This document shows positions 19,468 to 34,780 of a DNA stretch of 64,000 bases, one piece after another; positions within the stretch are counted from its first letter, which is position 1; each line of letters begins with the position of its first letter. The position numbers were made by a program, and so were the translations under genes. A model generated the notes under the pieces. It did not search any database. It had not been told where the DNA came from and saw nothing but the letters and a program-made list of their open reading frames with translations. Source of the DNA: Candidatus Heimdallarchaeum aukensis (GTDB lineage Archaea; Asgardarchaeota; Heimdallarchaeia; Heimdallarchaeales; Heimdallarchaeaceae); contig CP084166.1 of NCBI GenBank assembly GCA_021513695.1, forward strand, positions 1,568,001 to 1,632,000, in the 5' to 3' direction.

Positions 19468-20127
19468 ATGGGTATGAAAAACTGGTTATTTGGAACCAAA
19501 CGCAAGGATGATGCTGAAGCTTTAGCTACACTCAAAGCTCAGATCAATCGATATGAGCACGAGTCCCGCAATTTAGAACGTCAAGCTGATGAACAAAAAT
19601 CTTTAGCTGCTAAGATGTTAAAGTCGGGTAATAAAGCTGGAGCTAAACAAGCTCTTAAGCGTCGAGCTATTTATATGAAACGTTTAAATCAGGTTCAAAA
19701 TATGCTAATGAACCTTCAGAGTCAGATTGATAGTATTCAAACTGCAACCTCTACTGTTGAAACAGTAAAGGCAATGGAGTTAGGTACGAAAGTTGTCAAG
19801 ACGAAGATGCAAGAAGTTGATGTAGAGAAAACTGAACGTGTAATGGATGAAGTTATGAGTCAACGTGATGAAATTGAAATGATGACAGAAGCTTTATCTG
19901 ATACTGCACTAAGTGAGAGCATTTTAGATTACGAAGATGATGTCGCAATTGATGATCAACTTGCTCAATTAGAAGCCGAGATGAATCTTGGTAAAACAGA
20001 AGAATTACCAGATCTTTCAGATCTTCCTTCAACTCCATCAGAAAAACCGACTGAAAAAGAAGAAGATACTTCTGACCTTGAAGCCGAATTAGCTTCTCTT
20101 AAGAAGAAGTTAAGTGATGACAAATAA
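19468..20127 (+). CDS. ESCRT-III, Vps20/32/60 (Snf7/CHMP4)-like protein
   Basis: AKQALKRRAIYMKRLNQVQNMLMNLQSQIDSIQTA aligns by eye with CHMP4 ALQALKRKKRYEKQLAQIDGTLSTIEFQREALENA. The C-terminus is acidic with a terminal amphipathic helix (DLEAELASLKKKL). Confidence 0.85.
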   Translation: MGMKNWLFGTKRKDDAEALATLKAQINRYEHESRNLERQADEQKSLAAKMLKSGNKAGAKQALKRRAIYMKRLNQVQNMLMNLQSQIDSIQTATSTVETVKAMELGTKVVKTKMQEVDVEKTERVMDEVMSQRDEIEMMTEALSDTALSESILDYEDDVAIDDQLAQLEAEMNLGKTEELPDLSDLPSTPSEKPTEKEEDTSDLEAELASLKKKLSDDK

Positions 20128-21412: not shown

Positions 21413-21433
21413 ATGATTTACCTTTTTACGTAA
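21413..21433. repeat. Left terminal inverted repeat of element B
   Basis: ATGATTTACCTTTTTACGTAA. The reverse complement of 23311-23331 is ATGATTTACTATTTTACATAA. Confidence 0.7.
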
Positions 21434-21707
21434 GTTTTTCGCACTCGGTCTTTCAAGGGAGAAAACAGGAGTTTCATCACTTGATAACTCAACCACAACA
21501 TACAATGAAAGGAAACGTGGTTAAGACAGACGTCATACACGAATCGTGGGAATCATAAAGAAGGAAAAGAAAAAAGTAAGAAAGGAGAAAAGAAAGGAGG
21601 TTATCTCCTTCTTTATTCTACTTTCTTTTCTTTCCTTCACTCCACGAGAGACGAAAAAACAAACAAATAATCCTCTAACAAGAGAGAATGTAAGTTTATA
21701 TTTTCAT
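21413..21707 (-). ncRNA. Candidate omega-RNA/reRNA scaffold of element B (decayed copy)
   Basis: The non-coding stretch between the tnpB stop and the element end shares conserved blocks with copy A. The CTTAACC/GGTTGAG helix at 21488-94/21519-25 stays paired only in the tnpB-sense RNA, through a U-G wobble. Confidence 0.3.
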
Positions 21708-23161
21708 CTACTGGGGCTGCAACCAATGGCTGAGCCCTTGGCAAACAGTGAAATGAGTGAGACTAAATTTACGACCAGTGAGTAGATCAGTAATAGTTGT
21801 TGCACGGGGGCGGAAAAGAGAACTAAGGAGCAGACGAGCGATATTCATTGCTCCTGTTAGATCAGAGTGGAAGGTGTAATTGCAAGAGGGACAATAAACT
21901 AACCCTCTAACGGGGCGGGTAACTTTTTTTCCGCAACGGGCACAGTGAGATGATGTTCCTCTTTCCTCTATCGTCAGAATTCGGTGAGAGGGAAAACCTC
22001 TAAGTATTAGTGCACGACGGATAAAAGAAAGAACAAGAGCATAGTTCCACTGGTGAAGTTTTCTTCGTGACTTGCGATTAGTTACTCCCTTATTTTTTTC
22101 TCGTCGAATGTATTTAGGATAACCTATAACAACGAAAAGATTATAGATCCGAGCATAAACCTCTATTGTCCACACGATAGCACTTACAAATTGATTGATA
22201 TACGCTCGTCTGACGTTTCTATACCTCCGACGGAGACGTTTGAGAAAACGGTAAACTTGGTGTTTTTTACCCGATTGGTCGTTTAAAGCTGCTTTCCTCT
22301 GAAGACGGGAAAGTTTGAGTTTATATCGATGATTAACTTTATTCCACTGTTTGGTATACTAGAACTTTATTTCTTTACTTGTTACCTTCTTTTTCGGGGT
22401 CAGTAGCACTTCTACCGCAGGAATGTTTATCCCTAGATCTATTCCCAGCACAGCTGGGGGAAGAAAAGAAGAGTCAGAAGAAAGATTATCTCCCTGAAGG
22501 AAAGAAGAAGGAAGAACTTTTGAATGAAAATATATCCACCATTCACGTGTAGAACGTTTGTATCTTATTTCTAAACTTTTTACTCTTTCTTTAATTCTTT
22601 TTGATGAAACTCGCTCATCTCTAAAGGTAACCACAATCGCTGATGAAAACGTGTTTTTCTTTTCCACCTATCTAACGAGTCTCGTATTCCTACCCACCAA
22701 CGAGAAAGAGTGTTATTCTTATCTTTTGGTAGATGGACGAGGATGAACCTTTTTTTATTAATTAATTGTCTTCTTGCTCTCTTTCTTGGAGGACGAGTAT
22801 TGTTAGGTCTATATCCTTGCTCATATAGTTGCACAGCTATATCTCTACATTCTTGAAACTCATCGTGAGAACAATAGGGAAACATTTTCTTCATATCGTG
22901 AGGAACAGTCGTTCTTCTTTCTTCCTCTTTTTTTACTCTCGAGGTCGTTAATGTCAATTCGTCTAATTTTCCTTTATGTACTTTTATTTTCCCTTCTTTT
23001 GCTTTAATACCTATTTTTTTTCTGTTATGGTGTATAATTCTCACATACTTTTCTATTATTCTAGTATCTCTCCCCGTTATTCTCCTTAACTTTTCTTTTT
23101 TTCTCGTCGTCAATACTTCATTCTTCACTCTCACCTTTAACGTTTTGACGACGTCCTCCAT
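21708..23161 (-). pseudogene. tnpB: tnpB pseudogene (frameshift plus premature stop)
   Basis: Three track ORFs (22580-23161, 22359-22667, 21708-22175) together reproduce the 484-aa copy-A protein. There is an indel near 22585-22595 relative to copy A. TGG became TAG at 22359-22361 (KFWYTKQ in A, KF*YTKQ here). Confidence 0.85.
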
Positions 23162-23310
23162 CCTTTTTTTCTCCTCTTATTTTACTCTCTCTTTTTTTCT
23201 ATTTTTTTCTCTTCTTTTACTTCTTCTCTTCCTCATTATACTTTTTTTCCCTATAAAAAGTCCTTTCTTTTCTTTTTTTCTCATTATTCTTCCTCAATTT
23301 TTATATAAAG

Positions 23311-23331
23311 TTATGTAAAATAGTAAATCAT
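23311..23331. repeat. Right terminal inverted repeat of element B
   Basis: See 21413-21433. The terminal ..TCAT abuts a G, so the first ATG of the next ORF (23330) is built from the element end. Confidence 0.7.
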
Positions 23332-24130
23332 GGCTACAATGGAAAAACAAAAAGATAATGAATTTGAGCAAATTGATCTTGAAAAATTGAAAGAAGAAAA
23401 GAAAATATCAGAAGATAAGCTTAAGCTTATTGAAGCCAGTATTAAGGGATTAAAAGTTTCAGAAGAAGAACTGAAGTCCACGAAACCTATTGTTAGAGAA
23501 GAAGCAAGATTAGAACTAACAGAAGACACAAAGACGAAGCTAATTAAAGAATTTGAGCAAAGTTTACCTGATTGGGTTAACAAGCCTTGGATGTATGTCA
23601 CCCCAAAAAAGGCAAATCAAGTTGAGTCTTGGTTAGACAGTTGGTCATCAGTCATGCTTGATTATACAAAGAAATTTGTTATTCATATTGTTAATGTCAA
23701 TTCTCTTAGAGAAACTTATCCTTTTTGTAATAAGAAAATAAGAAAAGAACTTACCATCGATCAAATTCGTGATATCATCGATTTTCTTGAAACAAAGGGT
23801 TTTGCTCTTTGGATAAATGATAGGACAAAATTCTTTGAGAAACTTTTTGCAAAGATACTTGGAAAACCTTTAACAAAAAAGATCCGTGCAAAGATAGAAT
23901 GGAAAACAAAAGAAGAATTTGCTGAAGATTTACTTAAATGGATGATTGAAACCGGTAGAGTAGTTGAAGTTCACTCTTTATATGATTTAACAAAATATGA
24001 ACAACCCTGGTCTTCTTTACCTTCAGATGATTTAATCCATGTATGCAATTTACTCGTAGAAAAAGGTTCTGCTAGATGGTTAAATAGAGAAAGAACTATA
24101 ATTTCCTTTGAAGCAACAAAGGTATTCTAA
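23330..24130 (+). CDS. Vps25-like ESCRT-II subunit (two winged-helix domains) with a charged N-terminal extension
   Basis: The C-terminal 170 aa align by eye with human EAP20/Vps25: VESWLDSWSSVMLDYTKKF vs QLAAWCSLVLSFCRLH, DIIDFLETKGFALWIND vs VLEELRKKGNLEWLDK, and WKTKEEFAEDLLKWMIETGRVVEVHSLYDL vs WRRPEEWGKLIYQWVSRSGQNNSVFTLYEL. The native start may be the ATG at 23339. Confidence 0.7.
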   Translation: MATMEKQKDNEFEQIDLEKLKEEKKISEDKLKLIEASIKGLKVSEEELKSTKPIVREEARLELTEDTKTKLIKEFEQSLPDWVNKPWMYVTPKKANQVESWLDSWSSVMLDYTKKFVIHIVNVNSLRETYPFCNKKIRKELTIDQIRDIIDFLETKGFALWINDRTKFFEKLFAKILGKPLTKKIRAKIEWKTKEEFAEDLLKWMIETGRVVEVHSLYDLTKYEQPWSSLPSDDLIHVCNLLVEKGSARWLNRERTIISFEATKVF

Positions 24131-24183
24131 CTTTAATTTTTATTTTAATTTTATTTATTTACTATTTTTTGTGATGTAATGCT

Positions 24184-24621
24184 ATGTTTAAAAATTATAT
24201 ATTGAATAGACTTTTGAGATTTATGTCTTTAGACGATGAAGAATTACAAAGGATTCGAGAAAAAAAGGCACAACAACTTAGGCAAATTTTAGAACAGAGA
24301 AAATCAAAAATGGAACAACTTAAACAAGAGGAAACAGCGCCAAAAAGCATTACAAAAGAGGACAAGTATCGTTTAATGAATTATTTTCTAACTGATGACG
24401 CTTTTTCTTATTGGAAGAGTCTATATGAAAATCCACAAAAGCATAATACAGCAGAAACAATTTTCATTAATTTGCTCTATCTGATTAAGATTGGTTTTAT
24501 GGAAGGAAAACTTATCTCTCTTCTAGGAATTAAAAAATTAGAAAGAAAAATAGATAATATTCCTTCTAAAATCACAATAAAGAGAAAAGGAGAAAAAGAA
24601 AGATCCAAAGTTTTGGATTAA
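24184..24621 (+). CDS. PDCD5/TFAR19-like double-stranded-DNA-binding family protein
   Basis: DDEELQRIREKKAQQLRQ..., then a helical core (LMNYFLTDDAFSYWKSLYENPQKHNTAETIFINLLYLIKIGFMEGKLIS...KITIKRKG). These parallel PDCD5 (ELEALRRQRLAELQ ... [41 protein letters not shown] ... VKFNRR). The start may be Met14. Confidence 0.6.
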   Translation: MFKNYILNRLLRFMSLDDEELQRIREKKAQQLRQILEQRKSKMEQLKQEETAPKSITKEDKYRLMNYFLTDDAFSYWKSLYENPQKHNTAETIFINLLYLIKIGFMEGKLISLLGIKKLERKIDNIPSKITIKRKGEKERSKVLD

Positions 24622-24697
24622 TAATTGACTTTTACTTATTAGGTTACATTTATTTAGGATAATGAAAATAAAGTATTAGAAAGGAGCTGATGGATAA

Positions 24698-24934
24698 ATG
24701 AAGTTGAGTATTGTTACCGCAATAGGAGGAGGTCTTTTAGAATTAGATGTTGATAGCCATCAAACAATTGCACAACTTAAAAGAGAAGTTTCAAGAATTA
24801 AAAAGATACCTGCAAATACAGTTATTTTGGTTCATCATGGTCAACAGTTAGATGATGGTGAAACAATTAAGAGTTGCGGATTACAAGAAGGAGATAAACT
24901 CTATCTAATTGCAAGAACAAAAGGTGGACTTTAG
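24698..24934 (+). CDS. Ubiquitin-like beta-grasp protein ending ...RTKGG-L
   Basis: 78 aa. The pattern matches ubiquitin (TIAQLKREVSRIKKIPANTVILVHHGQQLDDGETIKSCGLQEGDKLYLIARTKGGL vs [55 protein letters not shown]). AGGAG lies upstream of the ATG. Confidence 0.85.
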   Translation: MKLSIVTAIGGGLLELDVDSHQTIAQLKREVSRIKKIPANTVILVHHGQQLDDGETIKSCGLQEGDKLYLIARTKGGL

Positions 24935-25009
24935 CTTTTCTATTTCAAAATTTTTTTAGAAGAATAGAAACTGTTTTATTACTTCTAAAAGATATTTTTG
25001 TGAAAGTGG

Positions 25010-26014
25010 ATGTCTAAAGAAGGTAGATATGCGAGACAGACTCTCATACCTGGTTGGAATCAGAAGAAACTCAACAAATCAACAGTTATTATTGTTGGTG
25101 TGGGAGCAATTGGATCATATGTATCAACGATTTTAGCTTCTTCAGGAGTAAAAAATCTCATTCTAATTGATTTTGATACTATTGAAATCTCTAATCTTAA
25201 TCGTCAATTACTATTTCGGGATGGAGATATTGGAAAATCCAAATCTGAAATTGCAGCTATGCGATTATCGGAACTAAATCCAGATATTAACATTACCTTT
25301 CATCATAAGAAGATGCAAGATTTACCTATTTCTATTTACAAAAAAGCAGATGTCATTGTGGCTTGTCTTGATACCTTCATTGGAAGAAGATGGATAAATT
25401 CACTTGCTGTAAAAATAAACAAACCTTTAATTTTAGGTGGAATGTTTGCTTTTCTAGGAGATGTTCAAGTTGTTTTACCAAAAAAAACTGCTTGCTTTGA
25501 TTGTCAACCTTTAGTTGCAGAAAGAGAACTTGCGCAAGCTTGTACTCCATTCGGAGAAGAAAGGAAGAAAAACAGAGAAGAAAAAGAGGATGAAGCGAAA
25601 TTACCATCTGTAGCCACATTGTCTGCGATTATCGGAGGAATTATGGCACAAGAAGCCTTAAAACTTCTTTTAGACATAGGTGAACCAATCAAGAATTATC
25701 TTTTCTATGATGGATTACATAATGCAACAACAATAATTGAACTTGCAAGAAGAAAAAAAGATTGTCCAACTTGTGGAGAACTATATGAGTTGGAACAAGT
25801 CGAATTTGTGGTAAATAAAGATAATACCGTCAAAGAACTATTAATCCAATTAGGTTTACAATTCGGACTTGAGAGCCCAGACATTATGATTAAAGGGAGG
25901 ATACTCCCTCACGATTCAAAAATCCAAGAACTAGGTATAAAAAATAACATGAAGGTTTTTGTAATGGACAAAAATTTAGCTTCACCAATCAAGTTAAAGT
26001 TAAAGATTGAGTGA
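25010..26014 (+). CDS. E1-like ubiquitin-activating enzyme (ThiF/MoeB fold) with C-terminal beta-grasp/UFD-like domain
   Basis: Rossmann motif VGVGAIGSYV, then DFDTIEISNLNRQLLF. Zinc-type cysteine pairs CFDC and CPTC. A charged crossover-loop insert (EERKKNREEKEDEAK) follows ACTPF. The last ~70 aa (VKELLIQLGLQFGL...MKVFVMDK) look like a beta-grasp domain. Confidence 0.85.
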   Translation: MSKEGRYARQTLIPGWNQKKLNKSTVIIVGVGAIGSYVSTILASSGVKNLILIDFDTIEISNLNRQLLFRDGDIGKSKSEIAAMRLSELNPDINITFHHKKMQDLPISIYKKADVIVACLDTFIGRRWINSLAVKINKPLILGGMFAFLGDVQVVLPKKTACFDCQPLVAERELAQACTPFGEERKKNREEKEDEAKLPSVATLSAIIGGIMAQEALKLLLDIGEPIKNYLFYDGLHNATTIIELARRKKDCPTCGELYELEQVEFVVNKDNTVKELLIQLGLQFGLESPDIMIKGRILPHDSKIQELGIKNNMKVFVMDKNLASPIKLKLKIE

Positions 26015-26025
26015 AAAAAGAAAAT

Positions 26026-26751
26026 TTAGGTGTGTGACAGTCCAGGGAAATAATATTTAGTTCCTTCAGCATAGGAACTATCTACTCTTGCTATACCATT
26101 TTCTTCAAAAAATGATAAGCAACGATTAATTCTTTCCTCTGCCCACCCTGTTCTAAGTAATAGATCTTCTTTTGTTACAAATCCTGTTCTTGAAGCAATG
26201 TTTAATATTACATCATGGTCGGGACTGAATTCAACAGGAGCAAATTCTACTAGTTTCACTCCAGATTCTAAAACTTTGAAAGGTGGAATTAATTTTGAAT
26301 TTATGAGTTTCTCTAATGAACGATACAAGTCATCAATTGTAACTAGTTTTCCAGGTCTAGTTTTATTTAATTGGGTAAACAATTCACCTACAGACATTAT
26401 ACCTCCATTTTCTTCTATAAGTTTTTGACCCAAATCCATGATTTCGTTTGCTAAAACATCATAGAAACCTTTTCCTGTTAATCTATCTTTTAGAGTTGGA
26501 GCTTCTTTCCATTCATATCTCCCTATTTCTGTAGGTAAGCCTAGTTCTTCTCGCAGGCCAGCAAGTTTTTCATAATATTCTTTATTTTCAACTATTTTAT
26601 CACCATATTTCTTTTCAAATTTCTTTAGTTGCTTTTTAACTTGTTTAATATTTTCCAACATTTGTTCTAATTCTTTTATCATTAATTCGGCTTCTTTAAC
26701 TTGGAAAGCTGACTTCACTTTTAATTTCTTTTCAATATCTCTTAAGCCCAA
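26026..26751 (-). CDS. EAP30-domain ESCRT-II subunit (Vps22/Vps36-like)
   Basis: By-eye alignment to SNF8/EAP30: FYDVLANEIMDLGQKLIEENGGIMSVGELFTQL vs [33 protein letters not shown], and DHDVILNIASRTGFVTKEDL...W..ER....L..FEENGIARVD vs DHTVVLQLAEKNGYVTVSEI...W..ER....L..LLKEGLAWLD. An N-terminal coiled coil is present. Confidence 0.8.
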   Translation of the reverse strand: MGLRDIEKKLKVKSAFQVKEAELMIKELEQMLENIKQVKKQLKKFEKKYGDKIVENKEYYEKLAGLREELGLPTEIGRYEWKEAPTLKDRLTGKGFYDVLANEIMDLGQKLIEENGGIMSVGELFTQLNKTRPGKLVTIDDLYRSLEKLINSKLIPPFKVLESGVKLVEFAPVEFSPDHDVILNIASRTGFVTKEDLLLRTGWAEERINRCLSFFEENGIARVDSSYAEGTKYYFPGLSHT

Positions 26752-26823
26752 CTTTAATCACTATTTTTTATTTGTCAGTGAGATATAAAAAATATACTAT
26801 TTAATTTCGCAATTAGCTTAGAG

Positions 26824-27132
26824 TTAAAAAAGGAGAGGAAGTCTTCTAATCCACTCTTTAATTGAATTCATAAGCTTTTTAGATTCATTTGGAGGAAGAA
26901 AAGCTGCTAGTTTGTCTTTATAGTTTTTGTATAGTTTTTGATAAACGCTGTCCATTTCATCAACAATTGAATCATTTACCAAATTGATTTTTTTAACAAG
27001 ATGTTTTATCTCTTCCAACTCTTCTAAGATGTATGAACAGTCAATTTTTATTTCTAAGAGATCCATCAACTCGAATAAACTATCTTTTGCTTTATTATAG
27101 GTATTTTCTAAAGATTTTCTCCTAGAAATCAT
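26824..27132 (-). CDS. Small all-helical protein (102 aa) between the ESCRT-I-like and ESCRT-II genes
   Basis: Heptad-like, charged helical sequence. It has its own SD-like GAGGAG 6 nt upstream of the ATG. No family recognised. Confidence 0.5.
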   Translation of the reverse strand: MISRRKSLENTYNKAKDSLFELMDLLEIKIDCSYILEELEEIKHLVKKINLVNDSIVDEMDSVYQKLYKNYKDKLAAFLPPNESKKLMNSIKEWIRRLPLLF

Positions 27133-27168
27133 GTTTACTCCTCTAAAAAGGCTGGATAAAAGATAGGA

Positions 27169-28638
27169 CTACATATCTTTTAAAATTCGTCTAAATTCGT
27201 TTAACCATCTTGATGCTTGGAATTCTAGTTTTTCACAATCGTCTTCATTTATTATTTCACTTGGTTTATAATTTGAAAGAATGTCTTTCCAGTTTTTCAT
27301 ATCGCTGAGCATCCAATGATCTTGCGGAATAGATGGAAACGAGTGCAAAACATGAATTAGCTCTTCTACGTCAGCCAACAGCAAATCAGCTCGTGCGACT
27401 GATTTAAGCCTTGTTAGATCAATTAATTCAATTGCAGCTGAAACAAAATCAGCTGTTTTTACAGGCATTTTCTTTAAGGATTCAAATGGTATCATTTCAA
27501 CATCTTTAGTTCCAGTTCCTTCAGCCATTTGTAGCAATCTCATTCCTTTGTCAAATCTATTTAGCAGATTTTCTTGCTCTATAAACGAATCGAGATCAAA
27601 TCCACCTAATTGTTCCAGTTTCATTCTTGTTTTGAAAACTGTTCTTATTAGTGATCTTAACTGCTTTTTATATGCAACTTGCTCAATCTCACCATTTTCA
27701 TACCCTCTCGCTAAATTATCTAATGTCACTATTGCTGCATATAAATCAGCTTCAAAATCTAATCTTTTATCTAAATCACTAGGCATTACTTGTCCTCCAA
27801 CATTTTCTAAATAAGCTAATTTTTTATTTGTCTTATAACTTTCCACTGAATATTTTCTATAAAGTTTCAAGTAATCAACACTTGAAAGATCTCCATCATC
27901 AAATTTCTCATTTAATAGCTCTAATAAGTCATTAGATGCTCTTGAACTTGCTTTTAAATCATCGGTTACAGAAATTGTAAGTTCTTTTAATGAATGTGAA
28001 GGCTCAGCTTTCTTGATTAGAGCAGCTCTTTTTTCCTCAATTTGTTTATTTAGTTCGTTTATCTGCTGCTGATACGCTTCTATCTCTGCTTCAATAGTAC
28101 TTTTTTCTATCGATGTTTGACTCCGTTCATTAAAGGATGGTACACTTTGCTTACGTACAGTGTGACGTGAAACTGTTCTTGGTTTCATCGGTTGAACTAC
28201 AGATCTAGACACACTCCTAGCTGTAGACATATGCTTTGTTCTTAATGGTCTTGCAGGAACATTAGCAAATAATCGCCGAATATCATTTATAACTTGATAA
28301 ATATGATAGCGTGGTTTCCATTGAGCGAGTATTTGCAAACTAAGAAAGTCATTGTCGTCAACATTAGGATGATTTACTTTAGGAGTAATTTCAACTTGAG
28401 GAGGAATTCTTGGGAACTCTGGAGAGATATATATTGTAGCATAAACAGTTATCTTCGTTCCTTGAATTATCCCTACAGGGCCTTTCCACTTTCTTAAATT
28501 GCCTCCTACTGGCTCAAATCCTTCAACATTATTATAAATTAATTGCATCTCATTAGCAAGAATCTGATCTAGAGAAATTTGTCTCACCTTTACTCTTCTA
28601 TTATTGTTATAAACTTCAAAGTTTAAAAAATATTGCAT
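27169..28638 (-). CDS. ESCRT-I-like fusion: UEV/E2-variant domain + coiled-coil stalk + Vps28-like domains
   Basis: Residues ~45-125 have a UBC fold (KWKGPV..GT...V...I....FP..PP.V.....V.HPNV) with Ser100 where E2s carry the catalytic Cys (DFLSLQIL vs GSICLDIL). A coiled coil spans ~170-205. The C-terminal ~200 aa align by eye to Vps28 (DLYAAIVTLDNLARGYENGEI...Y vs ELYSLIITLDHLEKAYLKD.I...Y, plus a C-terminal helical bundle). Confidence 0.75.
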   Translation of the reverse strand: MQYFLNFEVYNNNRRVKVRQISLDQILANEMQLIYNNVEGFEPVGGNLRKWKGPVGIIQGTKITVYATIYISPEFPRIPPQVEITPKVNHPNVDDNDFLSLQILAQWKPRYHIYQVINDIRRLFANVPARPLRTKHMSTARSVSRSVVQPMKPRTVSRHTVRKQSVPSFNERSQTSIEKSTIEAEIEAYQQQINELNKQIEEKRAALIKKAEPSHSLKELTISVTDDLKASSRASNDLLELLNEKFDDGDLSSVDYLKLYRKYSVESYKTNKKLAYLENVGGQVMPSDLDKRLDFEADLYAAIVTLDNLARGYENGEIEQVAYKKQLRSLIRTVFKTRMKLEQLGGFDLDSFIEQENLLNRFDKGMRLLQMAEGTGTKDVEMIPFESLKKMPVKTADFVSAAIELIDLTRLKSVARADLLLADVEELIHVLHSFPSIPQDHWMLSDMKNWKDILSNYKPSEIINEDDCEKLEFQASRWLNEFRRILKDM

Positions 28639-28729
28639 TCAAAAAAAAGAGTCTTTTCTTGAGAAAAAAATATATGAAAAAAAATTGATTATAATTCTAA
28701 ATTACAATAGAACCTAGGAATAAACTCTT

Positions 28730-29272
28730 TTACTTTCTATTTTTGACTAAAAGTGTAGCTAGTTTCACAAATGCTTCTTGAACATGTTCTCCTGTAAGTG
28801 CACTTGTTTTTATGAAATCCAAACTATTGATTTTGTTTTGTAATGATTTACATTCATCATCTGATACAGCAATTTTATCTTCTAAATCATTTTTATTTCC
28901 AACTAAGATGGTAAGGGTGTTCTTTCCACAGTTTTTAACAAGTTCAGAGTTCCATTTCTCTAGATCAGTTAGTGTTGAATTCCTGGTTAAATCGAAAACC
29001 ATCAGTGCTGCTTTTGCTCCTTTAAAGAAAGTATGTCTTATAAACCTAAATCTATCTTGTCCTGCTAGATCCCAAATTGAAAGAGCTACAACTGTATTGT
29101 CCTCTAATGTAACAAATTTCTCACTCGGTTCCATACCTATTGTCATCAGATAACTTTGTTCAAAACGATTATGAACAAAACGTTGTACAAGAGATGTCTT
29201 TCCTACAGCGGCGGCACCTAATAGAAGTATTTTGAAATTGAAATCAGGACGAATTGAACGCATTATTCTCAA
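28730..29272 (-). CDS. Rab/Ras-like small GTPase
   Basis: G1 GAAAVGKTS, G3 WDLAGQD, G4 GNKND and G5 TSAL. By eye it aligns end to end with Rab-type GTPases. There is no C-terminal Cys prenylation motif. The likely start is the ATG at 29263 (MRSIRPDF...). Confidence 0.9.
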   Translation of the reverse strand: MRIMRSIRPDFNFKILLLGAAAVGKTSLVQRFVHNRFEQSYLMTIGMEPSEKFVTLEDNTVVALSIWDLAGQDRFRFIRHTFFKGAKAALMVFDLTRNSTLTDLEKWNSELVKNCGKNTLTILVGNKNDLEDKIAVSDDECKSLQNKINSLDFIKTSALTGEHVQEAFVKLATLLVKNRK

Positions 29273-29275
29273 CTT

Positions 29276-29572
29276 TTACATTTTTTTTGCTTTTACAAGC
29301 TCTTCTTTTAAACTTTTAAGATAGTATGTTTCAAAATTTTCTTCTGCGCGTTTAATAGTAGTAAGAGAAATACAGAGATCTAATATGAATTCATATTGTT
29401 CTTTTTTCTCTTTCTGTGGTTTGAATGCTTTAAATTTTTTTAATAAATACTCGGCTAACTTTGACGCTTCTTTTTTTGTTAATGTTCCTTGCTCATATAA
29501 ATTAATAATTAACTCCATTTTCTCTATAGTAATATCATTGTTAATCTCTTTTAACGACAAAATTTTACTCAT
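29276..29572 (-). CDS. Small helical hypothetical protein (98 aa), first gene of the GTPase/ESCRT-I/II strand
   Basis: Clean ORF ending a few nt before the GTPase start. Lys/Glu-rich helices. No family recognised. Confidence 0.5.
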   Translation of the reverse strand: MSKILSLKEINNDITIEKMELIINLYEQGTLTKKEASKLAEYLLKKFKAFKPQKEKKEQYEFILDLCISLTTIKRAEENFETYYLKSLKEELVKAKKM

Positions 29573-29791
29573 ATGCTATCTATTCATTTTTTTCGGTTAA
29601 TATATGTTTTGCTGTTAAACTGGTTAGAAAATTGCTATCAGGGACTTATAATTAGATCAATAAATCAGATATTATATTTAAAATTGAGTAAGAAATTTCA
29701 ACAAGGATAACCTTTAGAAAAAGATAAAATAACCAAATAACTATTTTTGGGAGAAATATAAATTTAAAAATGGAAAAAAAAAATAATTTTA

Positions 29792-30499
29792 ATGACAAAA
29801 AAAACAATACTTGCTTGTTTTGCCCATCCTGATGATGAATTGGGTTGTGTTGGAACATTAGCAAACCATGCAAAAAATGGAGATAGAGTTGTAATTGCAT
29901 GGACTACTAGTGGTGAGATGGCTTCTTTTTTTGAAGGGATGAGTTTTGAAGAAGTAAAAGATATTAGAGAAAAACAAGGAAGAGAAATCGGTAAAATCAT
30001 AGGAAGTAATGTAGAAACTATTTTCTTAGGTTATGGTGACACAGAAGTCATTCCTACTAGGGAAAATGCTATTAAAATGGCAAAAATAATTGCTAAAATT
30101 AAGCCAGATGCCGTTATTAGTTGGGGATTTAATAATCGACACCCAGATCATAGAGGAACAGTACAATTATTGTATGATGCTATGACATATGCTAGAATCC
30201 CAAGAATAACAAGTCCTGACCCTCCTCACAGACCTCCATTTCATATACCCATGTTCTTATATTATGAGAAAATCAGCCCTTTACGAACAGTTTACGTAGA
30301 TATTAGTGAAACTTATCCTCAGGTAGAAAAAGCGTTTAGACTTTACGCTGATTTCTATGGATGGTCGGTAAGTGATTGGATTCATGTAAGAAGAAGAACA
30401 GATGGAATGGATTGCGGAGTAAAATTCGCAGAGAAATTTAATGTTTTTTCAAGATATGAGCCATATTCATCTTTATTACCAATAAATAATGATGCATAG
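29792..30499 (+). CDS. PIG-L/LmbE family N-acetylglucosaminyl deacetylase
   Basis: Signature AHPDDE (LACFAHPDDELG) and a later HPDH (NRHPDHRGT). 235 aa. Confidence 0.85.
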   Translation: MTKKTILACFAHPDDELGCVGTLANHAKNGDRVVIAWTTSGEMASFFEGMSFEEVKDIREKQGREIGKIIGSNVETIFLGYGDTEVIPTRENAIKMAKIIAKIKPDAVISWGFNNRHPDHRGTVQLLYDAMTYARIPRITSPDPPHRPPFHIPMFLYYEKISPLRTVYVDISETYPQVEKAFRLYADFYGWSVSDWIHVRRRTDGMDCGVKFAEKFNVFSRYEPYSSLLPINNDA

Positions 30500-30538
30500 A
30501 AAAATCTAGAAAAAATCCAGTGCTGATTTACTTTTTTA

Positions 30539-31162
30539 TTATTTTTCATCATCAGTTTGCTTCTCTTCTTTTTCTTCTTCATTTTCTTCTTCAAAGAAGT
30601 CATCATCAAACATTAATACACTGTCTAAAACAGAGTCAAGGGAAGGTCTTTCAGGAGGAGTTAATGGTATATCTGCTTTATCTGCAACAGAAATATCTAA
30701 AGATGAAAGATCTGCTCTCGCTCTTCTTCTCGTTGTTGGAGTCGTACTAACATATTGAATATTCTTTAACATTGATTTAACAGAACTGATTTCTTCTTTC
30801 AAATCTTTCAGAGAACTGAGTGCATTAATTTTTTCTAAAAGCTCATCTACTTTCTCTAACTCTCTTTTGGTTTTCTCTTCAAACTTTTTACTTGTTTCAG
30901 TTATCTTTGCAAACTGGCCTTCAGTTATGTTTATTCTTCTAGGAATTGAGGGTTCAGTGGGTGGAAAAAACAATGCAGGAGATGCTTTTAATTCTTCAAG
31001 AGAACCAAATTTTTCACTATGGTGTGCCTTGATTGACGCAAGAATTGCAGTTATAGGGTTTCCATATTCCGTCATTAAATCTTCAATCATATCCCATATT
31101 GCTATAGGAATTGGTACTTCTATTATTCTAGCTATCCTTTGCTTCTTTTTTTGAGAATACAT
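30539..31162 (-). CDS. Hypothetical protein with central coiled coil and strongly acidic C-terminal tail
   Basis: 207 aa. The N-terminal region could be ribbon-helix-helix-like (RIARIIEVPIPIAIWDMIEDLM), which is a weak call. The tail is FDDDFFEEENEEEKEEKQTDDEK. Confidence 0.5.
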   Translation of the reverse strand: MYSQKKKQRIARIIEVPIPIAIWDMIEDLMTEYGNPITAILASIKAHHSEKFGSLEELKASPALFFPPTEPSIPRRINITEGQFAKITETSKKFEEKTKRELEKVDELLEKINALSSLKDLKEEISSVKSMLKNIQYVSTTPTTRRRARADLSSLDISVADKADIPLTPPERPSLDSVLDSVLMFDDDFFEEENEEEKEEKQTDDEK

Positions 31163-31397
31163 TATTTTCTACCAGATTAATTAGTAATTTGAGTATTTAA
31201 TTAAAGACCACTACTTTACACATCTCTGATAATACTTCTCTGTATATAAATATACTTTTTAATCTACTAAAATCAAAGAATGATAAATATTAGACAATAA
31301 TAGGAATTTTAACCTAATTAAAAAACAAACTGTTAAAATAAGAAGATAAGGTAGAAAGGAAAGATCCTTTCTCTCTCTCCCTTTTAATAGAATTTTC

Positions 31398-31670
31398 TTA
31401 TGCAGTGTCTGTTACTTTGCTTTCTTCTTGTAGGAACTCAAAAGTTTCACGTAACTCAGGAGCTAAGTAATAATAGACCGACCGCATATCTGATAGATTA
31501 GACATTTTCTTTAAAATGCCTTTTTCTAGAAGGCGTCTAATACCATAACGAACTGTTCGTTCTGGTTGTTCTACAGATGCTAAGATCTGTTTCTGTGTCA
31601 TTGGTCCTTTTTCGTCCAATACTTTTATTATATCTTCTCCGCCTCGGGGTAATTTTCGTCTTTTCATCAT
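31398..31670 (-). CDS. Small winged helix-turn-helix DNA-binding protein
   Basis: 90 aa. DIIKVLDEKGPMTQKQILASVEQPERTVRYGIRRLLEKGILKK is a typical wHTH (MarR/TrmB-like) core. AGGTGA lies 3 nt upstream of the ATG. Confidence 0.65.
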   Translation of the reverse strand: MMKRRKLPRGGEDIIKVLDEKGPMTQKQILASVEQPERTVRYGIRRLLEKGILKKMSNLSDMRSVYYYLAPELRETFEFLQEESKVTDTA

Positions 31671-31692
31671 GATTCACCTTTTTTTTGTTCAT

Positions 31693-31709
31693 CTAGTGTT
31701 TTACACTAG
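31693..31709. promoter_or_regulatory. 7-bp perfect palindrome (CTAGTGT-ttt-ACACTAG) 22 nt upstream of the wHTH gene start
   Basis: 31693-31699 is the reverse complement of 31703-31709. Its position in the 5' region of a DNA-binding protein gene suggests an autoregulatory operator. Confidence 0.3.
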
Positions 31710-31767
31710 CTTTAACACATGCATATTGAGCGTAACTCAATCAAACTACTGGGTTTATAAACTTTTG

Positions 31768-31851
31768 CCTAGTCCGAGAGCATCTCTGCTAATGCAATGA
31801 ATACGTATCATTGTTGCGTATGTTTATCCATACACACAACGCGGACTTAGG
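31768..31851. ncRNA. Cloverleaf-like 84-nt element of unknown nature (not a canonical tRNA)
   Basis: The closing stem is CCT-AGTCCG / CGGACT-(T)-AGG. It encloses three hairpins: AGAG-cat-CTCT, CAATGA-atacgta-TCATTG, and GTATG-tttatc-CATAC. GC is above local background. There is no T-loop GTTCRA, no D-loop and no proper spacers. Confidence 0.15.
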
Positions 31852-31964
31852 AATTCGCCCAAACCCCAAATTTATTGAAGTTACTGTTACTCAGTATTTA
31901 CTATTCTCATCTAAGTATATAATGATTTCTATGTAACAAAATAAAAAAATTATATATATTTAAC

Positions 31965-32867
31965 CTATAAATTATTTAAAAAATCTCTTATTCTTTGAAG
32001 AGCAAGTCTACTTTCTGGCAACATTTTTCCAAAGAGAGTGAAACAGTGTGTCATTTCTTCCCAAATATCTAGCTCCACATTTACACCTTGTTCTAGTGCT
32101 TTTTTTGCGAATCTTATTGAATCATCGAGTAAAATTTCAGAGGTTCCAACTTGGATAAATATTGAAGGTAGACCACGAAGGTCACCAAACAAAGGGGACA
32201 CTAAGGGGTTTCTAGGATTTTGTCCTTGTAGATACATTTCGGCGGCAAATTCTAGATTCTTTTTTGATAACTGGGGATCTTCATCTTCTTTAGTAAGAAC
32301 TGATTCACCAGATAAGGTTAAGTCAGTCCAGGGAGAGATACATATTCCTGCCCTAGGAAGAGGTTTTCTTAATGATTTCAAGTTGAGCATTGTAGATAGT
32401 GTCAATCCTCCTCCTGCAGAGTCACCCATTATGATTACTTTTTTTGGGTTAAGTTCCAGATCGCCTATCAAGTTCAAATATGCTTTTGTTGCATCTTCAA
32501 GAGCTGCAGGAAAAGGAAATTCTGGAGCTAAACGATAATCAAGAAGTAGTACTTGCGTTTCAGTTATCAGTGAAAATCTTCCTGCAAAAGCTCTATGCGT
32601 TTTTGGAGATCCAATTACATATGCTCCCCCATGTAAATATAAAATAGTATATTCAGATTTCATGTAACCGATCTTTGTTGGATATAACCATTCTGCATTT
32701 AAATTATTTATTTCAGTTTTTTCAACAGTTATTGCTTTTGGTACTTTTAAAATAGAAAGAGTTCTCTCTAAAATGTGCCTTTTTCTTTCTACACTCCTGT
32801 CTCCAGTAGATTTTACGGGCAGAGAACGTAAAAGATTTAACAAAATTTTTGCTTTACGACTAACCAC
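31965..32867 (-). CDS. Alpha/beta-hydrolase fold-3 esterase/lipase (HSL family)
   Basis: Oxyanion-hole box YLHGGAY (an HGG motif) and nucleophile elbow GDSAGG. A late acidic residue and His (EEMTHCF) are also present. 300 aa. Confidence 0.85.
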   Translation of the reverse strand: MVSRKAKILLNLLRSLPVKSTGDRSVERKRHILERTLSILKVPKAITVEKTEINNLNAEWLYPTKIGYMKSEYTILYLHGGAYVIGSPKTHRAFAGRFSLITETQVLLLDYRLAPEFPFPAALEDATKAYLNLIGDLELNPKKVIIMGDSAGGGLTLSTMLNLKSLRKPLPRAGICISPWTDLTLSGESVLTKEDEDPQLSKKNLEFAAEMYLQGQNPRNPLVSPLFGDLRGLPSIFIQVGTSEILLDDSIRFAKKALEQGVNVELDIWEEMTHCFTLFGKMLPESRLALQRIRDFLNNL

Positions 32868-32912
32868 AATAACAAAGAATTACTACATAAAACATAAATG
32901 TTTTCTTTGGAC

Positions 32913-32935
32913 ATGATTTACTTTTTTCCGTAAGT
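32913..32935. repeat. Left terminal inverted repeat of element A
   Basis: See the mobile_element entry; 20/23 match to the inverted right end. Confidence 0.75.
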
Positions 32936-33173
32936 TTTTCGCACTCGGTCTTTCAAGAGAGAAAAACAATAAAATAGCTTAATCGCTTGGTAACTCAACC
33001 TAAACATACAATGAATGGGAGTGGTTGAGACAGACATCATACACGAATCGTGGGAATCATAAAGAAGAAAGGAAGAAAAAAGTAAAACCTTTTTTCTTTT
33101 TTCCTTCACTCCACGAGAGACAAAAAAGAAAGACTAACTCTAACACAAGAGGATAGAATTAGTTTCTTTTCGT
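32913..33173 (-). ncRNA. Candidate omega-RNA/reRNA scaffold of element A
   Basis: A 261-nt non-coding stretch between the tnpB stop and the element end. Its blocks are conserved with copy B (CGCACTCGGTCTTTCAAG, CATACACGAATCGTGGGAATCATAAAGAAG, CCTTCACTCCACGAGAGA). Conserved hairpins: CTCAACC/GGTTGAG (32994-33000 / 33023-33029) and a purine/pyrimidine hairpin at ~33066-33106. Confidence 0.4.
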
Positions 33174-34628
33174 CTACTGGGGCTGCAACCAATGGCTGAG
33201 CCCTCGGCAAACAGTGAAATGAGTGAGACTGAATTTCTGACCAGTGAGGTAATCAGTAATGGTGTTACATCGAGGACGGAAAAGATATCCAAGGAACTTA
33301 CGAGCGATATTCATTCCCCTTGTTAGATCAGAATGAAAAGTGTAGTTACAGGAAGAACAATGAACTAACCCTCTAACGGGACGGGAAACTTTCCTCCCGC
33401 AACGAGCACAGTGAGAAGATGTCCCTCTTTCCTCTATTGTTAATATTCGGTGAGATTCAAAGCCTCGAAGTATAAGTGCCCGACGGAGAAGAGAGAGAAC
33501 AAGAGAAAAATTCCACTGATGAAGTTTTCTGCGAAACTTACGATTACTTTTTTCTTTTTCTTTTCCTTCTCGAACATGTTTGGGGTAACCTACAACAACG
33601 AAAAGGTCATACACTTGTGCATAACTCTCTATCGTCTGCACAACATCGCTTATAAATTGGTGAATATACGCGCGTTTAACGTTTCTATACCTCCGACGAA
33701 GAAGACCAAGAAAACGGTAAACTTGGTGCTTTTTACCTAACTGGTCGTTTAAAGCTGCTTTCCTCTGAAGACGGGAAAGTTTGAGTTTATATCTATGATT
33801 GATTCTATTCCACTGTTTAGTATACCAGAATTTTATCTCTTTTTTTGTTAACTTCTTTTTAGGAGTCAGTAACACTCCTGCAGCAGGAATGTTTATCCCT
33901 AGATCTATTCCCAGCACAGCTGGGGGAAGAGAAGAAGAATTATCTCCTTGACTTGTGAGATAAAAGGAAGAAGGAGGAAGAACTTTTAATTGGAAATACA
34001 CCCACCATTCACGTGTAGAACGTTTGTATCTTAGTTCTAGACTTTTCACCCTCCCTTTCTTTAACTCTTTCTGGTGAAAATCGCTCATCTCTAAAGGTAA
34101 CCACAACTTCTGATGATAAGGTGTCTTTCTCTTCCAGGTATCTAACGAGTCTCTTATTCCTACCCACCAACGAGTAAGTGTATTATTCTTCTCTTTTGGT
34201 AGATGGACAAGAATGAACCTTTTTCCATTAATTAATTGCCTTCTTGCTCTCTTTATTGGAGGACGAGTAGGACGGGGTCTATACCCTTGTTCATATAATT
34301 GTACAGCTATATCTCTACACTCTTGGAATTCATTGTGAGAACAATAGGGAAACATTTTCTTCAAGTCGTGAGGAACAGTCTTTCTCCTCTCTTCTTCTTT
34401 TACTCTTGAAGTAGTCAGTGTCAACTCGTCTAATTTTCCTCTATGTACTCTTATTTTCCCTTTTTTTGTTCTTATACTTATTTTTCTTCTGTTGTGGTGT
34501 ATAATTCTCACATATTTTTCTATTATTCTCGTGTCTCTCCCCGTTATTCTCCTTAATCTTTCCTTTTTTCTCGTCGTCAATACCTCATTCTTTATTCTCA
34601 CTTTTAATGTTTTGACGACGTCCTCCAT
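33174..34628 (-). CDS. tnpB: TnpB-like RNA-guided endonuclease family protein (OrfB, RuvC + zinc ribbon)
   Basis: 484 aa. RuvC-I is LGIDLGINIP. The zinc ribbon is CARCGRKVSRPVRGLVHCSSCNYTFHSD. RuvC-III is HSDLTRGMNIA. The N-terminal KTLKVRIKN... is typical of TnpB. Confidence 0.9.
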   Translation of the reverse strand: MEDVVKTLKVRIKNEVLTTRKKERLRRITGRDTRIIEKYVRIIHHNRRKISIRTKKGKIRVHRGKLDELTLTTSRVKEEERRKTVPHDLKKMFPYCSHNEFQECRDIAVQLYEQGYRPRPTRPPIKRARRQLINGKRFILVHLPKEKNNTLTRWWVGIRDSLDTWKRKTPYHQKLWLPLEMSDFHQKELKKGRVKSLELRYKRSTREWWVYFQLKVLPPSSFYLTSQGDNSSSLPPAVLGIDLGINIPAAGVLLTPKKKLTKKEIKFWYTKQWNRINHRYKLKLSRLQRKAALNDQLGKKHQVYRFLGLLRRRYRNVKRAYIHQFISDVVQTIESYAQVYDLFVVVGYPKHVREGKEKEKSNRKFRRKLHQWNFSLVLSLLRRALILRGFESHRILTIEERGTSSHCARCGRKVSRPVRGLVHCSSCNYTFHSDLTRGMNIARKFLGYLFRPRCNTITDYLTGQKFSLTHFTVCRGLSHWLQPQ

Positions 34629-34780
34629 CTTTCTTTCCTCTTTTCTTATTCTAAACTTTTTTCTTCTCCTTTAATTATACTTTTTTTCCCTATAAAAATT
34701 CCTCACTTTTTCTTCTCTCCCTCCCTCTTCCTTCCTTCTTTCCTTTCTTTTTTCGTTGCACTCTTCCTCAATTTTTATAA

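Follow-up and report, generated by a model that had tools for sequence, protein, structure and literature searches.

The gene under study lies in a window of 64,000 nucleotides, the whole stretch of DNA that was analysed, and, judged by its sequence, is an ordinary ortholog of the known, biochemically tested UEV-Vps23-Vps28 fusion of Heimdallarchaeia. We consider it probable (roughly 0.85) that the gene encodes a single-chain ESCRT-I of Heimdallarchaeaceae that would work by the mechanism proposed below, and that the HPN triad and the serine at the former catalytic position of its E2-variant domain are remnants of an E2 enzyme. The fusion of Heimdallarchaeota AB_125, namely HeimAB125_14070 (OLS31938.1), has been published as a UEV-Vps23-Vps28 ('UEV-Vps28') protein (Hatano et al. 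2022, PMC9192718), and its UEV is a reported ubiquitin binder (PMC9192718; bioRxiv 10.1101/2023.07.25.550441), so that the possible novelty raised in a preliminary description of this DNA falls away. The same description had implied an origin in Lokiarchaeia, which is incorrect: the window is from Heimdallarchaeum, its nucleotide sequence being 88-94% identical to that of its close relative Ca. Heimdallarchaeum endolithica PR6. One further Heimdallarchaeum genome thereby receives a correct annotation for its ESCRT-I fusion, a protein already known from Asgard archaea, with no conceptual addition to the archaeal ubiquitin-ESCRT pathway that predates eukaryotes.

The gene and the parts of its product, with residues counted from the ATG, are as follows.

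27169..28638, (-) strand: UEV-Vps23-Vps28 fusion ORF, the Heimdallarchaeaceae ESCRT-I protein, 489 aa counted from ATG.
28585..28587, (-) strand: GTG at residue 18, the probable true start, giving a 472-aa protein (from ortholog starts, a PR6 indel, and the model).
28246..28572, (-) strand: UBC-fold/UEV domain, residues 23-131 (from Pfam, PDB profile matches, Foldseek, and hhalign).
28363..28371, (-) strand: HPN triad, H90-P91-N92 (read out from the translation).
28339..28341, (-) strand: Ser100, codon AGT, at the E2 catalytic Cys position (aligned to C85 of UbcH5B).
28129..28239, (-) strand: disordered linker rich in Ser/Thr/Arg/Pro/Lys, residues 134-170 (pLDDT 31-46).
28009..28125, (-) strand: stalk helix/coiled coil, residues 172-210 (a single 39-residue helix in both models).
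27799..27969, (-) strand: Vps23-core/steadiness-box hairpin, residues 224-280 (Pfam near cutoff, model, and homologs).
27769..27816, (-) strand: fusion junction, residues about 275-290 (the stop/start site of separate genes in Hermodarchaeum-type genomes).
27607..27780, (-) strand: Vps28 N-terminal hairpin, part of the headpiece, residues 287-344 (within the Pfam VPS28 match).
27175..27462, (-) strand: Vps28 C-terminal four-helix bundle, residues 393-488 (phmmer and Foldseek matches to 2j9w).

Translation probably begins at the GTG at 28587 and not at the upstream ATG. Most orthologs have N-termini (MRQIS or MNKIS) that match the GTG position in our alignment; a 1-nt indel throws the upstream ATG out of frame in PR6; and residues 1-20 of the fusion model have a pLDDT below 50.

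The window protein aligns with HeimAB125_14070 (P0027) at E 1e-151, with 51% identity over 95% coverage, and its PR6 ortholog is 95% identical. Like HeimAB125_14070, it shows full-length homology within the family, a Cys-less UBC domain, the stalk and Vps23 hairpin, Vps28, and a location in the ESCRT cluster. The two proteins are alike in (i) domain order, length, and Pfam content, (ii) the combination of HPN with Ser, and (iii) their common neighbours, namely p102, Vps22, Vps25, Vps4, and two Snf7 genes; they differ in species, and the linker sequence has diverged. The full-length AB_125 fusion, as well as its isolated UEV, binds Heimdall ubiquitin in a V45D-sensitive manner (Hatano et al. 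2022, PMC9192718); this binding is non-covalent and requires neither E1 nor ATP. The AB_125 protein also forms dimers and gives interactions in yeast two-hybrid assays (PMC9192718), and an interaction with Vps22 has been shown for it. Further, surface plasmon resonance gave a micromolar KD for ubiquitin binding by the AB_125 protein (2023 preprint, bioRxiv 10.1101/2023.07.25.550441). By analogy with this ortholog, we infer that the window protein binds ubiquitin, dimerises, and binds Vps22.

An E2-variant domain, a coiled-coil stalk, and both Vps28 domains had been proposed for one polypeptide in the preliminary description, and our Pfam searches and structural models bear this out. Two AF2 models, with pLDDT values of 76 (full-length) and 83 (residues 171-489), contain the expected elements; the second was built since Foldseek searches with the full-length model returned E2 matches only, and it was needed for the Vps28 and headpiece matches to appear. 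At the N terminus, the modelled UBC fold comprises helix a1, a four-stranded sheet, a short 3-10 helix, and helix a2. Pfam UQ_con matches residues 47-139 (PF00179; E 7e-12, 45.5 bits, cutoff 27), PDB profile matches are to UbcH5/Rad6 (E 1e-9), and Foldseek places the domain with E2 folds at a TM(target) of 0.55-0.60 and a probability of 1.00. The Pfam UEV family (PF05743) scores 18.6 bits for the window protein, below its cutoff of 27, and is precomputed on some orthologs. E2 helices a3/a4 are absent: the UQ_con match breaks off at position 124 of the 140-position profile, and in the model the UBC domain closes with helix 113-126, after which the chain is disordered. The result is a UBC fold without Cys and without a3/a4, joined to a stalk and a steadiness box, as in a UEV of the Vps23/TSG101 type.

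The middle region had been described as a linker and a coiled coil; both are present, and the Vps23-core/steadiness-box hairpin that precedes Vps28 had been overlooked. Conservation in the alignment is lowest in the linker, which carries indels, and the stalk helix has invariant residues that include I186, Y189, Q190, I193, I200, and R204. Pfam Vps23_core matches residues 227-268 with 24.7 bits, slightly under its cutoff of 26.8; the corresponding helices in the model are H224-247/H253-280, and PF09454 is precomputed on most fusion homologs. The assignment of the last ~200 residues to both Vps28 domains, previously made by eye, is upheld by Pfam VPS28 (PF03997; residues 297-486, profile 2-188/188, E 1.4e-11, 45 bits, cutoff 24.5), as well as by Foldseek, which pairs the N-terminal hairpin with Vps28-N in 2f6m_D (probability 0.98), 2caz_E (0.96), and 6vme (0.92-0.95). 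The C-terminal bundle, which is the most conserved alignment block of the family, matches the Xenopus Vps28 CTD 2j9w in phmmer (E 0.005) and in Foldseek (TM(target) 0.84-0.87, rmsd 1.5 A over 95-97 residues). The Foldseek E-values for the Vps28 and headpiece matches are weak (0.03-1.9), despite the high probability and TM.

'ESCRT-I condensed into one polypeptide', as the protein had been called, is apt insofar as Vps23 and Vps28 are joined, but these are two of the four eukaryotic subunits, and nothing corresponding to Vps37 or Mvb12 was seen within the fusion polypeptide. Every stop-to-stop ORF of 50 aa or longer in the 64-kb window was also scanned, using UbcH5B and sub-profiles for the three fusion parts, and no second E2, UEV, Vps23, or Vps28 was found there. 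For AB_125, Hatano et al. (PMC9192718) record four E2-like genes.

In favour of an assembly or frameshift artefact uniting separate vps23-like and vps28 genes, such genes do occur side by side in Hermodarchaeum-type genomes. We nevertheless regard this explanation as having practically no chance of being correct. The ORF is uninterrupted in 28 species-representative genomes, assembled independently and including the closed PR6 chromosome (CP084167.1), where it belongs to the same ubiquitin/E1/ESCRT cluster; 40+ metagenomic protein clusters combine the three Pfam domains in this way; and the junction region can be aligned across all homologs. On these comparative grounds, the artefact named in the original proposal is rejected.

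Separate UEV-Vps23 and Vps28 proteins are known from other Asgard archaea, for example, Odinarchaeum (Hatano et al. 2022, PMC9192718). A candidate fusion outside Heimdallarchaeia (L032-L034) was rejected, as the tblastn match spans residues 27-489 but covers two adjacent ORFs. In these genomes, a gene for a 255-aa UEV-Vps23 and a gene for a 215-aa Vps28 are adjacent and in the same order; after them come the same small gene and then vps22, so that the downstream gene order is like that of the window. The stand-alone Hermodarchaeum UEV-Vps23 aligns with window residues 27-274 (E 7e-30) and the Vps28 with residues 291-489 (E 5e-44), and in Hermodarchaeum yapensis (L034) 20 nt separate the vps23-like gene from vps28. 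Where the window protein has HPN and Ser, the Hermodarchaeum UEV carries HPR and His. These adjacent genes, in the same order and context, suggest a simple origin of the fusion, in which the 20-nt spacer and the stop codon between them would have been lost; this origin is one of two points that the present analysis adds to what was known. At the Hermodarchaeum locus, a RING-like zinc-finger gene adjoins the ubiquitin gene.

The gene neighbourhood in the window contains the following features.

26824..27132, (-) strand: conserved 102-aa helical protein (p102), always between the fusion gene and vps22 (about 30 loci).
26026..26751, (-) strand: Vps22-like ESCRT-II subunit (EAP30; Pfam EAP30 E 1.4e-22), syntenic.
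25010..26014, (+) strand: E1-like ubiquitin-activating enzyme (ThiF; Pfam ThiF E 1.3e-64).
24698..24934, (+) strand: ubiquitin, 78 aa, ending in ...TKGG-L (Pfam ubiquitin E 1e-13).
23330..24130, (+) strand: Vps25-like ESCRT-II subunit (Pfam ESCRT-II E 6.6e-16).
20255-21400, (+) strand: Vps4 (MIT, AAA, and Vps4_C).
18835-19452 and 19468-20127, (+) strand: two Snf7/ESCRT-III genes (Pfam Snf7 E 1e-19 and 1e-26).

The conserved synteny is Ub-E1-fusion-p102-Vps22 beside Vps25-Vps4-Snf7-Snf7, and in most Heimdallarchaeaceae genomes the fusion gene comes straight after Ub and E1, all three sharing one strand. The window and PR6 have the p145-Ub-E1 block inverted and placed between vps22 and vps25, whereas in AB_125 it is upstream of the fusion gene.

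From these parts, a mechanism can be proposed. The E2-variant domain would bind ubiquitylated cargo non-covalently through the hydrophobic patch of ubiquitin, as extrapolated from the AB_125 ortholog; the window ubiquitin has Val45 where eukaryotes have Ile44, and Val45 would form part of this patch. The flexible linker and the stalk helix would hold the UEV apart from a headpiece that would be formed in cis by the Vps23 steadiness-box hairpin and the Vps28 N-terminal hairpin, and the protein is probably a dimer, as reported for the ortholog. The Vps28 C-terminal bundle, the expected docking module for ESCRT-II (Vps22), would recruit ESCRT-II by way of Vps22, encoded two genes downstream, and ESCRT-II would in turn recruit Vps25, the ESCRT-III proteins, and Vps4, all from the same cluster. 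This layout has in common with eukaryotic ESCRT-I the UBC-fold domain lacking both the Cys and a3/a4, the stalk helix, the steadiness-box hairpins, and the four-helix bundle of the Vps28 CTD. It differs in that eukaryotic ESCRT-I consists of four chains (Vps23/TSG101, Vps28, Vps37, and Mvb12) and the present one of a single chain, and the headpiece hairpins that share this chain belong to separate subunits in other Asgard lineages and in eukaryotes.

The E2-variant domain shares with canonical E2s (UbcH5/UBE2D and Rad6/UBE2A) the UBC core, HPN, FP..PP, and the Trp after the active-site loop, and differs from them in having Ser100 for the catalytic Cys, in lacking a3/a4, and in being fused to ESCRT-I modules. 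The HPN triad was earlier reported to be intact at residues 90-92, as the translation shows, and none of the 46 homologs that cover the region, nor any of the 28 genome loci, departs from it; HPN, FP..PP, and W107 are all invariant across the aligned fusion homologs. The earlier placement of Ser100 at the catalytic position is confirmed by alignment, in which both the profile match and hhalign set it column for column with Cys85 of UbcH5B. Similarly, the pairing of HPN with Ser is, as had been remarked, unlike TSG101, which aligns with GKH for HPN and with Tyr110 for Cys/Ser. The hhalign probability is 97% against UbcH5B and 8% against the TSG101 UEV. As the window UEV is thus much closer to active E2s than to eukaryotic UEVs, it could conceivably still act like an E2 or bind partners as an E2 does.

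The activity proposed in the preliminary description was that of an oxyester-forming pseudo-E2, in which the neighbouring E1 would charge Ser100 with the aid of HPN and give a long-lived covalent Ub~ESCRT-I, instead of or besides non-covalent binding. Such charging would fit the exact placement of Ser100 beside an intact HPN, the best PDB sequence match of the domain (3jvz, the engineered, oxyester-forming C85S mutant of UbcH5B), and the position of the gene in the usual E2 slot, after Ub and E1 on the same strand in most Heimdallarchaeaceae genomes. It would also fit the occurrence of Ser, which predominates at this position, in 23 of the 28 species-level orthologs (82% of species), as well as that of Lys in one ortholog; Lys in engineered E2s can also be charged. 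However, the remaining orthologs carry Val (two) or Asn (two) at this position, and one further metagenomic protein (P0008) carries Ala, with HPN and all else retained. A Cys ten residues after the HPN His is absent from the window protein, whose sole Cys in 489 aa is C468, and from all of the orthologs, which have S, V, N, K, or A instead. Moreover, among 115 wider archaeal UEV relatives, HPN occurs together with R, A, G, D, K, N, H, Q, L, M, T, and V, many of which are non-nucleophilic. The Ser codons at the site are all AGY, one nucleotide step from TGY; switching between TCN and AGY, sought as a sign of selection for Ser itself, was absent from the set. In addition, E2 helices a3/a4 and the following loop are missing, and the AB_125 ortholog binds ubiquitin non-covalently, in a V45D-sensitive manner, without E1 or ATP (PMC9192718).

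Because orthologs have V, N, or A at the Ser position and HPN is kept whatever the residue, covalent charging is very unlikely, and the alignment of Asgard UEVs at the Cys position, which had been suggested as a check, shows a variable residue beside an HPN that is invariant in the fusion orthologs and lends no support to a catalytic Ser. The narrower claim that, in the Ser-bearing majority, the neighbouring E1 puts ubiquitin on Ser100 (or on Lys in the K variant) to form a stable ester or isopeptide Ub~ESCRT-I appears to us just as improbable. Were it true, it would be notable, and only then: a natural ester-linked ubiquitin adduct would sit on a sorting complex, the Ub~ESCRT-I would mark itself or autoregulate the complex, and it would be the natural counterpart of the C-to-S and C-to-K traps engineered in E2s.

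On the sequence data, the preferred reading of the HPN triad and Ser100 is that both are left over from an E2 ancestor of fairly recent date. Retention of HPN is independent of Ser, since HPN is kept beside many residue types, and this decoupling of HPN conservation in Asgard UEVs from whatever residue now occupies the catalytic position, the second point added here, argues for a structural role of HPN. HPN may have been retained for fold stability, and Ser may have arisen from Cys by a single nucleotide change (TGY to AGY) and be tolerated rather than required. The Asgard UEVs would thereby document intermediate stages in the decay from E2 to UEV, beyond which eukaryotic TSG101, which lacks HPN and has Tyr110 in place of the Cys, has already passed. 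A search of the literature on HPN in archaeal UEVs found nothing specific, and neither PMC9192718 nor bioRxiv 10.1101/2023.07.25.550441 mentions HPN, an oxyester, or a charging test.

A domain far more E2-like than TSG101-like could, alternatively, act as a non-catalytic E2 mimic, whose E2-type surfaces would dock the ubiquitin-fold domain of E1 or a RING E3, besides or instead of binding ubiquitin, and would recruit the ubiquitylation machinery to where ESCRT acts. The invariance of HPN, FP..PP, and W107 and the operon-like Ub-E1-fusion order in most genomes accord with such docking, as do a weak ubiquitin-fold match at the C-terminus of E1 (Ubiquitin_5, residues 271-321, E 7e-4, below cutoff) and the RING-like gene beside Ub at the Hermodarchaeum locus. 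Fold stability, however, accounts equally well for HPN and the proline motif being conserved, and published assays already account for the domain as a ubiquitin binder. We therefore consider an E2 mimic unlikely, albeit less so than covalent charging; it is compatible with a non-covalent, ubiquitin-binding, single-chain ESCRT-I, the two not being mutually exclusive.

The small protein between the fusion gene and vps22, p102, matched no Pfam family above cutoff and gave no match to the steadiness box. Aligned to the Vps28 CTD by hhalign, it is collinear over 80 columns, a weak match with E 0.06 and a probability below 1%, and p102 may be a stand-alone Vps28-CTD-like module.

The 489-aa ORF at 27169..28638 (-) in the window carries every feature that a preliminary description had read from the sequence alone, namely an E2-variant domain with HPN kept and Ser for Cys, a linker with a coiled coil, and Vps28, as judged by translation, Pfam, and a profile search against PDB sequences. 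The linker and coiled coil are both there, and the same region also holds a Vps23 steadiness-box hairpin. In translation, the HPN triad is H90-P91-N92, residue 100 is Ser (codon AGT, 28339-28341), and C468 is the sole Cys of the protein. Pfam and an AlphaFold2 model of the fusion protein, built from 26 homologs (mean pLDDT 76), delimit the following segments, numbered from the ATG.

Residues 47-139: UQ_con (Pfam, E 7e-12, 45.5 bits against a cutoff of 27; Pfam UEV scores 18.6 bits only)
Residues 227-268: Vps23_core (Pfam, 24.7 bits, slightly below the cutoff of 26.8)
Residues 297-486: VPS28, whole profile, 2-188 of 188 (Pfam, 45 bits against a cutoff of 24.5)
Residues 23-131: UBC core with helix a1, four strands, a 3-10 helix, and helix a2 (AlphaFold2)
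Residues 134-170: disordered stretch (AlphaFold2)
Residues 172-210: 39-residue helix (AlphaFold2)
Residues 224-280 and 287-344: two helical hairpins (AlphaFold2)
Residues 393-488: C-terminal helical bundle (AlphaFold2)

The family profile matched UbcH5/Rad6-type E2s at ~1e-9 among PDB sequences, with the Ser aligned to the catalytic Cys85 column and with 3jvz, a C85S mutant, as the best match. In the model, a short 3-10 helix (102-105) lies directly past Ser100, and helix a2 spans 113-126. Foldseek likewise matched the full model to E2 structures (prob 1.00, TM(target) 0.55-0.60); the VPS37A UEV ranked 32nd. A second model covered residues 171-489 (pLDDT 82.6), and its top PDB match was the Vps28 C-terminal domain 2j9w (TM 0.84-0.87, rmsd 1.5 A over 95-97 residues), which a plain phmmer search also recovered (E 0.005); the ESCRT-I headpiece chains 2f6m_D, 2caz_E, and 6vme ranked lower (prob 0.92-0.98), and all these helical matches have weak Foldseek E-values (0.03-1.9).

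Translation probably does not begin with the ATG at 28638: most orthologs start at the equivalent of residue 18, residues 1-20 have pLDDT <40, and in the close relative Candidatus Heimdallarchaeum endolithica PR6 the upstream ATG is out of frame owing to a 1-nt indel within an A-rich run. Residue 18 is encoded by GTG (28585-28587 (-)), a start that would give a 472-aa protein with H73-P74-N75 and Ser83.

Scanning species-representative genomes with the family alignment returned 34 loci, the best being the closed chromosome of PR6 (CP084167.1; Heimdallarchaeaceae), which is 88-94% identical to the window in nucleotides across the entire 21-kb locus. The named close homologs are all Heimdallarchaeota except for three records, titled Bathyarchaeota (P0010), Thorarchaeota (L011), and Promethearchaeati only (L009); the Lokiarchaeia context first assumed is therefore wrong. 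The bins QM1B.68 (L011, labelled Thorarchaeota) and H3S.115 (L033, labelled Odinarchaeota) are at odds with their loci, which match Heimdallarchaeaceae-type and Hermodarchaeum-type clusters, respectively, suggesting that they are mislabelled or contaminated.

A protein search with the fusion gave 48 clusters, 43 of them near full length (444-489 aa) with PF00179 and PF03997 and mostly PF09454, and five shorter, each lacking one of PF00179 and PF03997. Among the 43 is HeimAB125_14070 (E 1e-151, 51% identity, 95% coverage), which Hatano et al. 2022 (PMC9192718) published as a UEV-Vps23-Vps28 fusion that contains a steadiness box and a coiled-coil stalk and has no catalytic-site Cys. Heimdall ubiquitin is bound in crosslinking by both the full-length protein and the UEV alone, ubiquitin V45D abolishes binding, and dimerisation of the protein and its yeast two-hybrid interaction with ubiquitin are also reported (PMC9192718). 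A 2023 preprint calls this fusion UEV-Vps28, restricts it to certain Heimdallarchaeia, notes its co-location with ubiquitin, and uses SPR to measure binding between the UEV and ubiquitin (10.1101/2023.07.25.550441). The fusion is thus already known and its ortholog experimentally characterised, which removes the novelty initially implied; the HPN triad and E1-dependent charging tests are absent from both reports.

Architecture, orthology, synteny, and origin by gene fusion are shown by the present analysis. By transfer from the ortholog, the fusion protein would bind the hydrophobic patch of ubiquitin non-covalently, and the window ubiquitin carries Val45 at that position; it would also dimerise. 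Eukaryotic ESCRT-I and the yeast two-hybrid data from Heimdall lead to the prediction that the Vps28 C-terminal bundle docks ESCRT-II (Vps22), which would in turn recruit Vps25, ESCRT-III proteins, and Vps4. Vps22, Vps25, ESCRT-III proteins, and Vps4 are all encoded in the cluster.

The HPN region and the Vps28 C-terminal motif lie in one uninterrupted ORF in 28 species-level genomes, so the fusion is not an assembly or frameshift artefact, a concern raised at the outset. The conserved order is p145 (a gene beside ubiquitin and E1), Ub, E1, fusion, a ~100-aa gene, and Vps22, opposite Vps25, Vps4, and two Snf7 genes; Pfam confirmed the window's neighbour genes. The p145-Ub-E1 block lies directly 5' of the fusion gene and co-directional with it in most other Heimdallarchaeaceae (compared: L002-L027); the window (24184-26014 (+)) and PR6 have it inverted and relocated between vps22 and vps25. 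In three more distant genomes (L032-L034), UEV-Vps23 and Vps28 are separate genes (255 and 215 aa, 20 nt apart, in Hermodarchaeum yapensis, L034); a 97-aa gene and vps22 come next. Since window residues 27-274 align with the separate UEV-Vps23 gene (E 7e-30) and residues 291-489 with the separate Vps28 gene (E 5e-44), the alignments place the fusion junction at residues 275-290 (27769-27816); the simplest scenario is that two adjoining genes lost the stop codon and spacer that separated them.

The claim that HPN with Ser is unlike TSG101 was borne out: the family N-domain profile aligned with UbcH5B at 97% hhalign probability, Ser100 opposite Cys85, and with the TSG101 UEV at only 8%, where GKH replaces HPN and Tyr110 replaces the Ser (TSG101 sequence checked against 1kpp). 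This pairing had raised the possibility that Ser100 makes the domain an oxyester-forming pseudo-E2, a reading that we consider very improbable. HPN occurs in every ortholog without exception, whereas the Ser position holds S in 23, V in 2, N in 2, and K in 1 of 28 species; an additional metagenomic protein has Ala there. The Ser codons are all AGT/AGC, one step from a Cys codon, and no AGY/TCN switching was seen among them. An exhaustive N-domain-only HMMER search gave 115 representatives, mostly of 200-300 aa, a length matching UEV-Vps23 proteins; those bearing HPN have at the former Cys site C (24), S (16), R, A, G, and D (4 each), K (3), N, H, and Q (2 each), and also L, M, T, and V. Judged from these sequences, HPN is therefore kept regardless of the residue replacing Cys. 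Moreover, the N-domain lacks the two C-terminal helices (a3/a4) and ensuing loop of canonical E2s (Pfam, model), and UEV domains likewise lack these helices. The Asn of HPN has an established structural role in E2s, and fold stabilisation is the simplest explanation for the triad. Of the preliminary interpretation, the domain assignments hold up; the taxonomic context, possible novelty, and catalytic proposal do not.

Several neighbouring features were also observed.

26824-27132 (-): p102, a 102-aa protein, all-helical and conserved, without exception located between the fusion gene and vps22 (97 aa in Hermodarchaeum)
24698-24934 (+): ubiquitin, ending one residue past the di-glycine (...TKGG-L)
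28730-29572 (-): small GTPase of the Ras/Rab family (180 aa, Pfam Ras E 4e-45), with a 98-aa protein
21413-23197: TnpB/Cas12f-like IS element, decayed (ORF fragments 21708-22175, 22359-22667, 22580-23161)
32913-34662: second copy, with an intact 484-aa ORF (33174-34628)

The hhalign alignment of p102 with the Vps28 C-terminal bundle is collinear and covers the whole domain but is statistically weak (E 0.06). There are two candidate identities for p102: the Vps28-C domain that Makarova et al. 2024 (PMC10936438) mention as encoded separately, and the free-standing steadiness-box protein in Hatano et al. (PMC9192718). Before activation, ubiquitin would have to lose its extra Leu by C-terminal processing. 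In the Hermodarchaeum locus, ubiquitin adjoins an 82-aa RING-like zinc-finger protein with a C-x2-C ... C-P-I-C pattern, a candidate E3 (L034 822-1070 (-) and 570-806 (-)); no counterpart of it was noticed in the cluster of the window. The GTPase/98-aa pair lies directly 5' of the fusion gene and accompanies the ESCRT/ubiquitin genes in most of the related genomes. The two TnpB/Cas12f-like copies, in the same orientation and ~84% identical, flank the Vps25-Ub-E1-Vps22-fusion-GTPase block (23330-32908), and the syntenic PR6 chromosome carries neither insertion.
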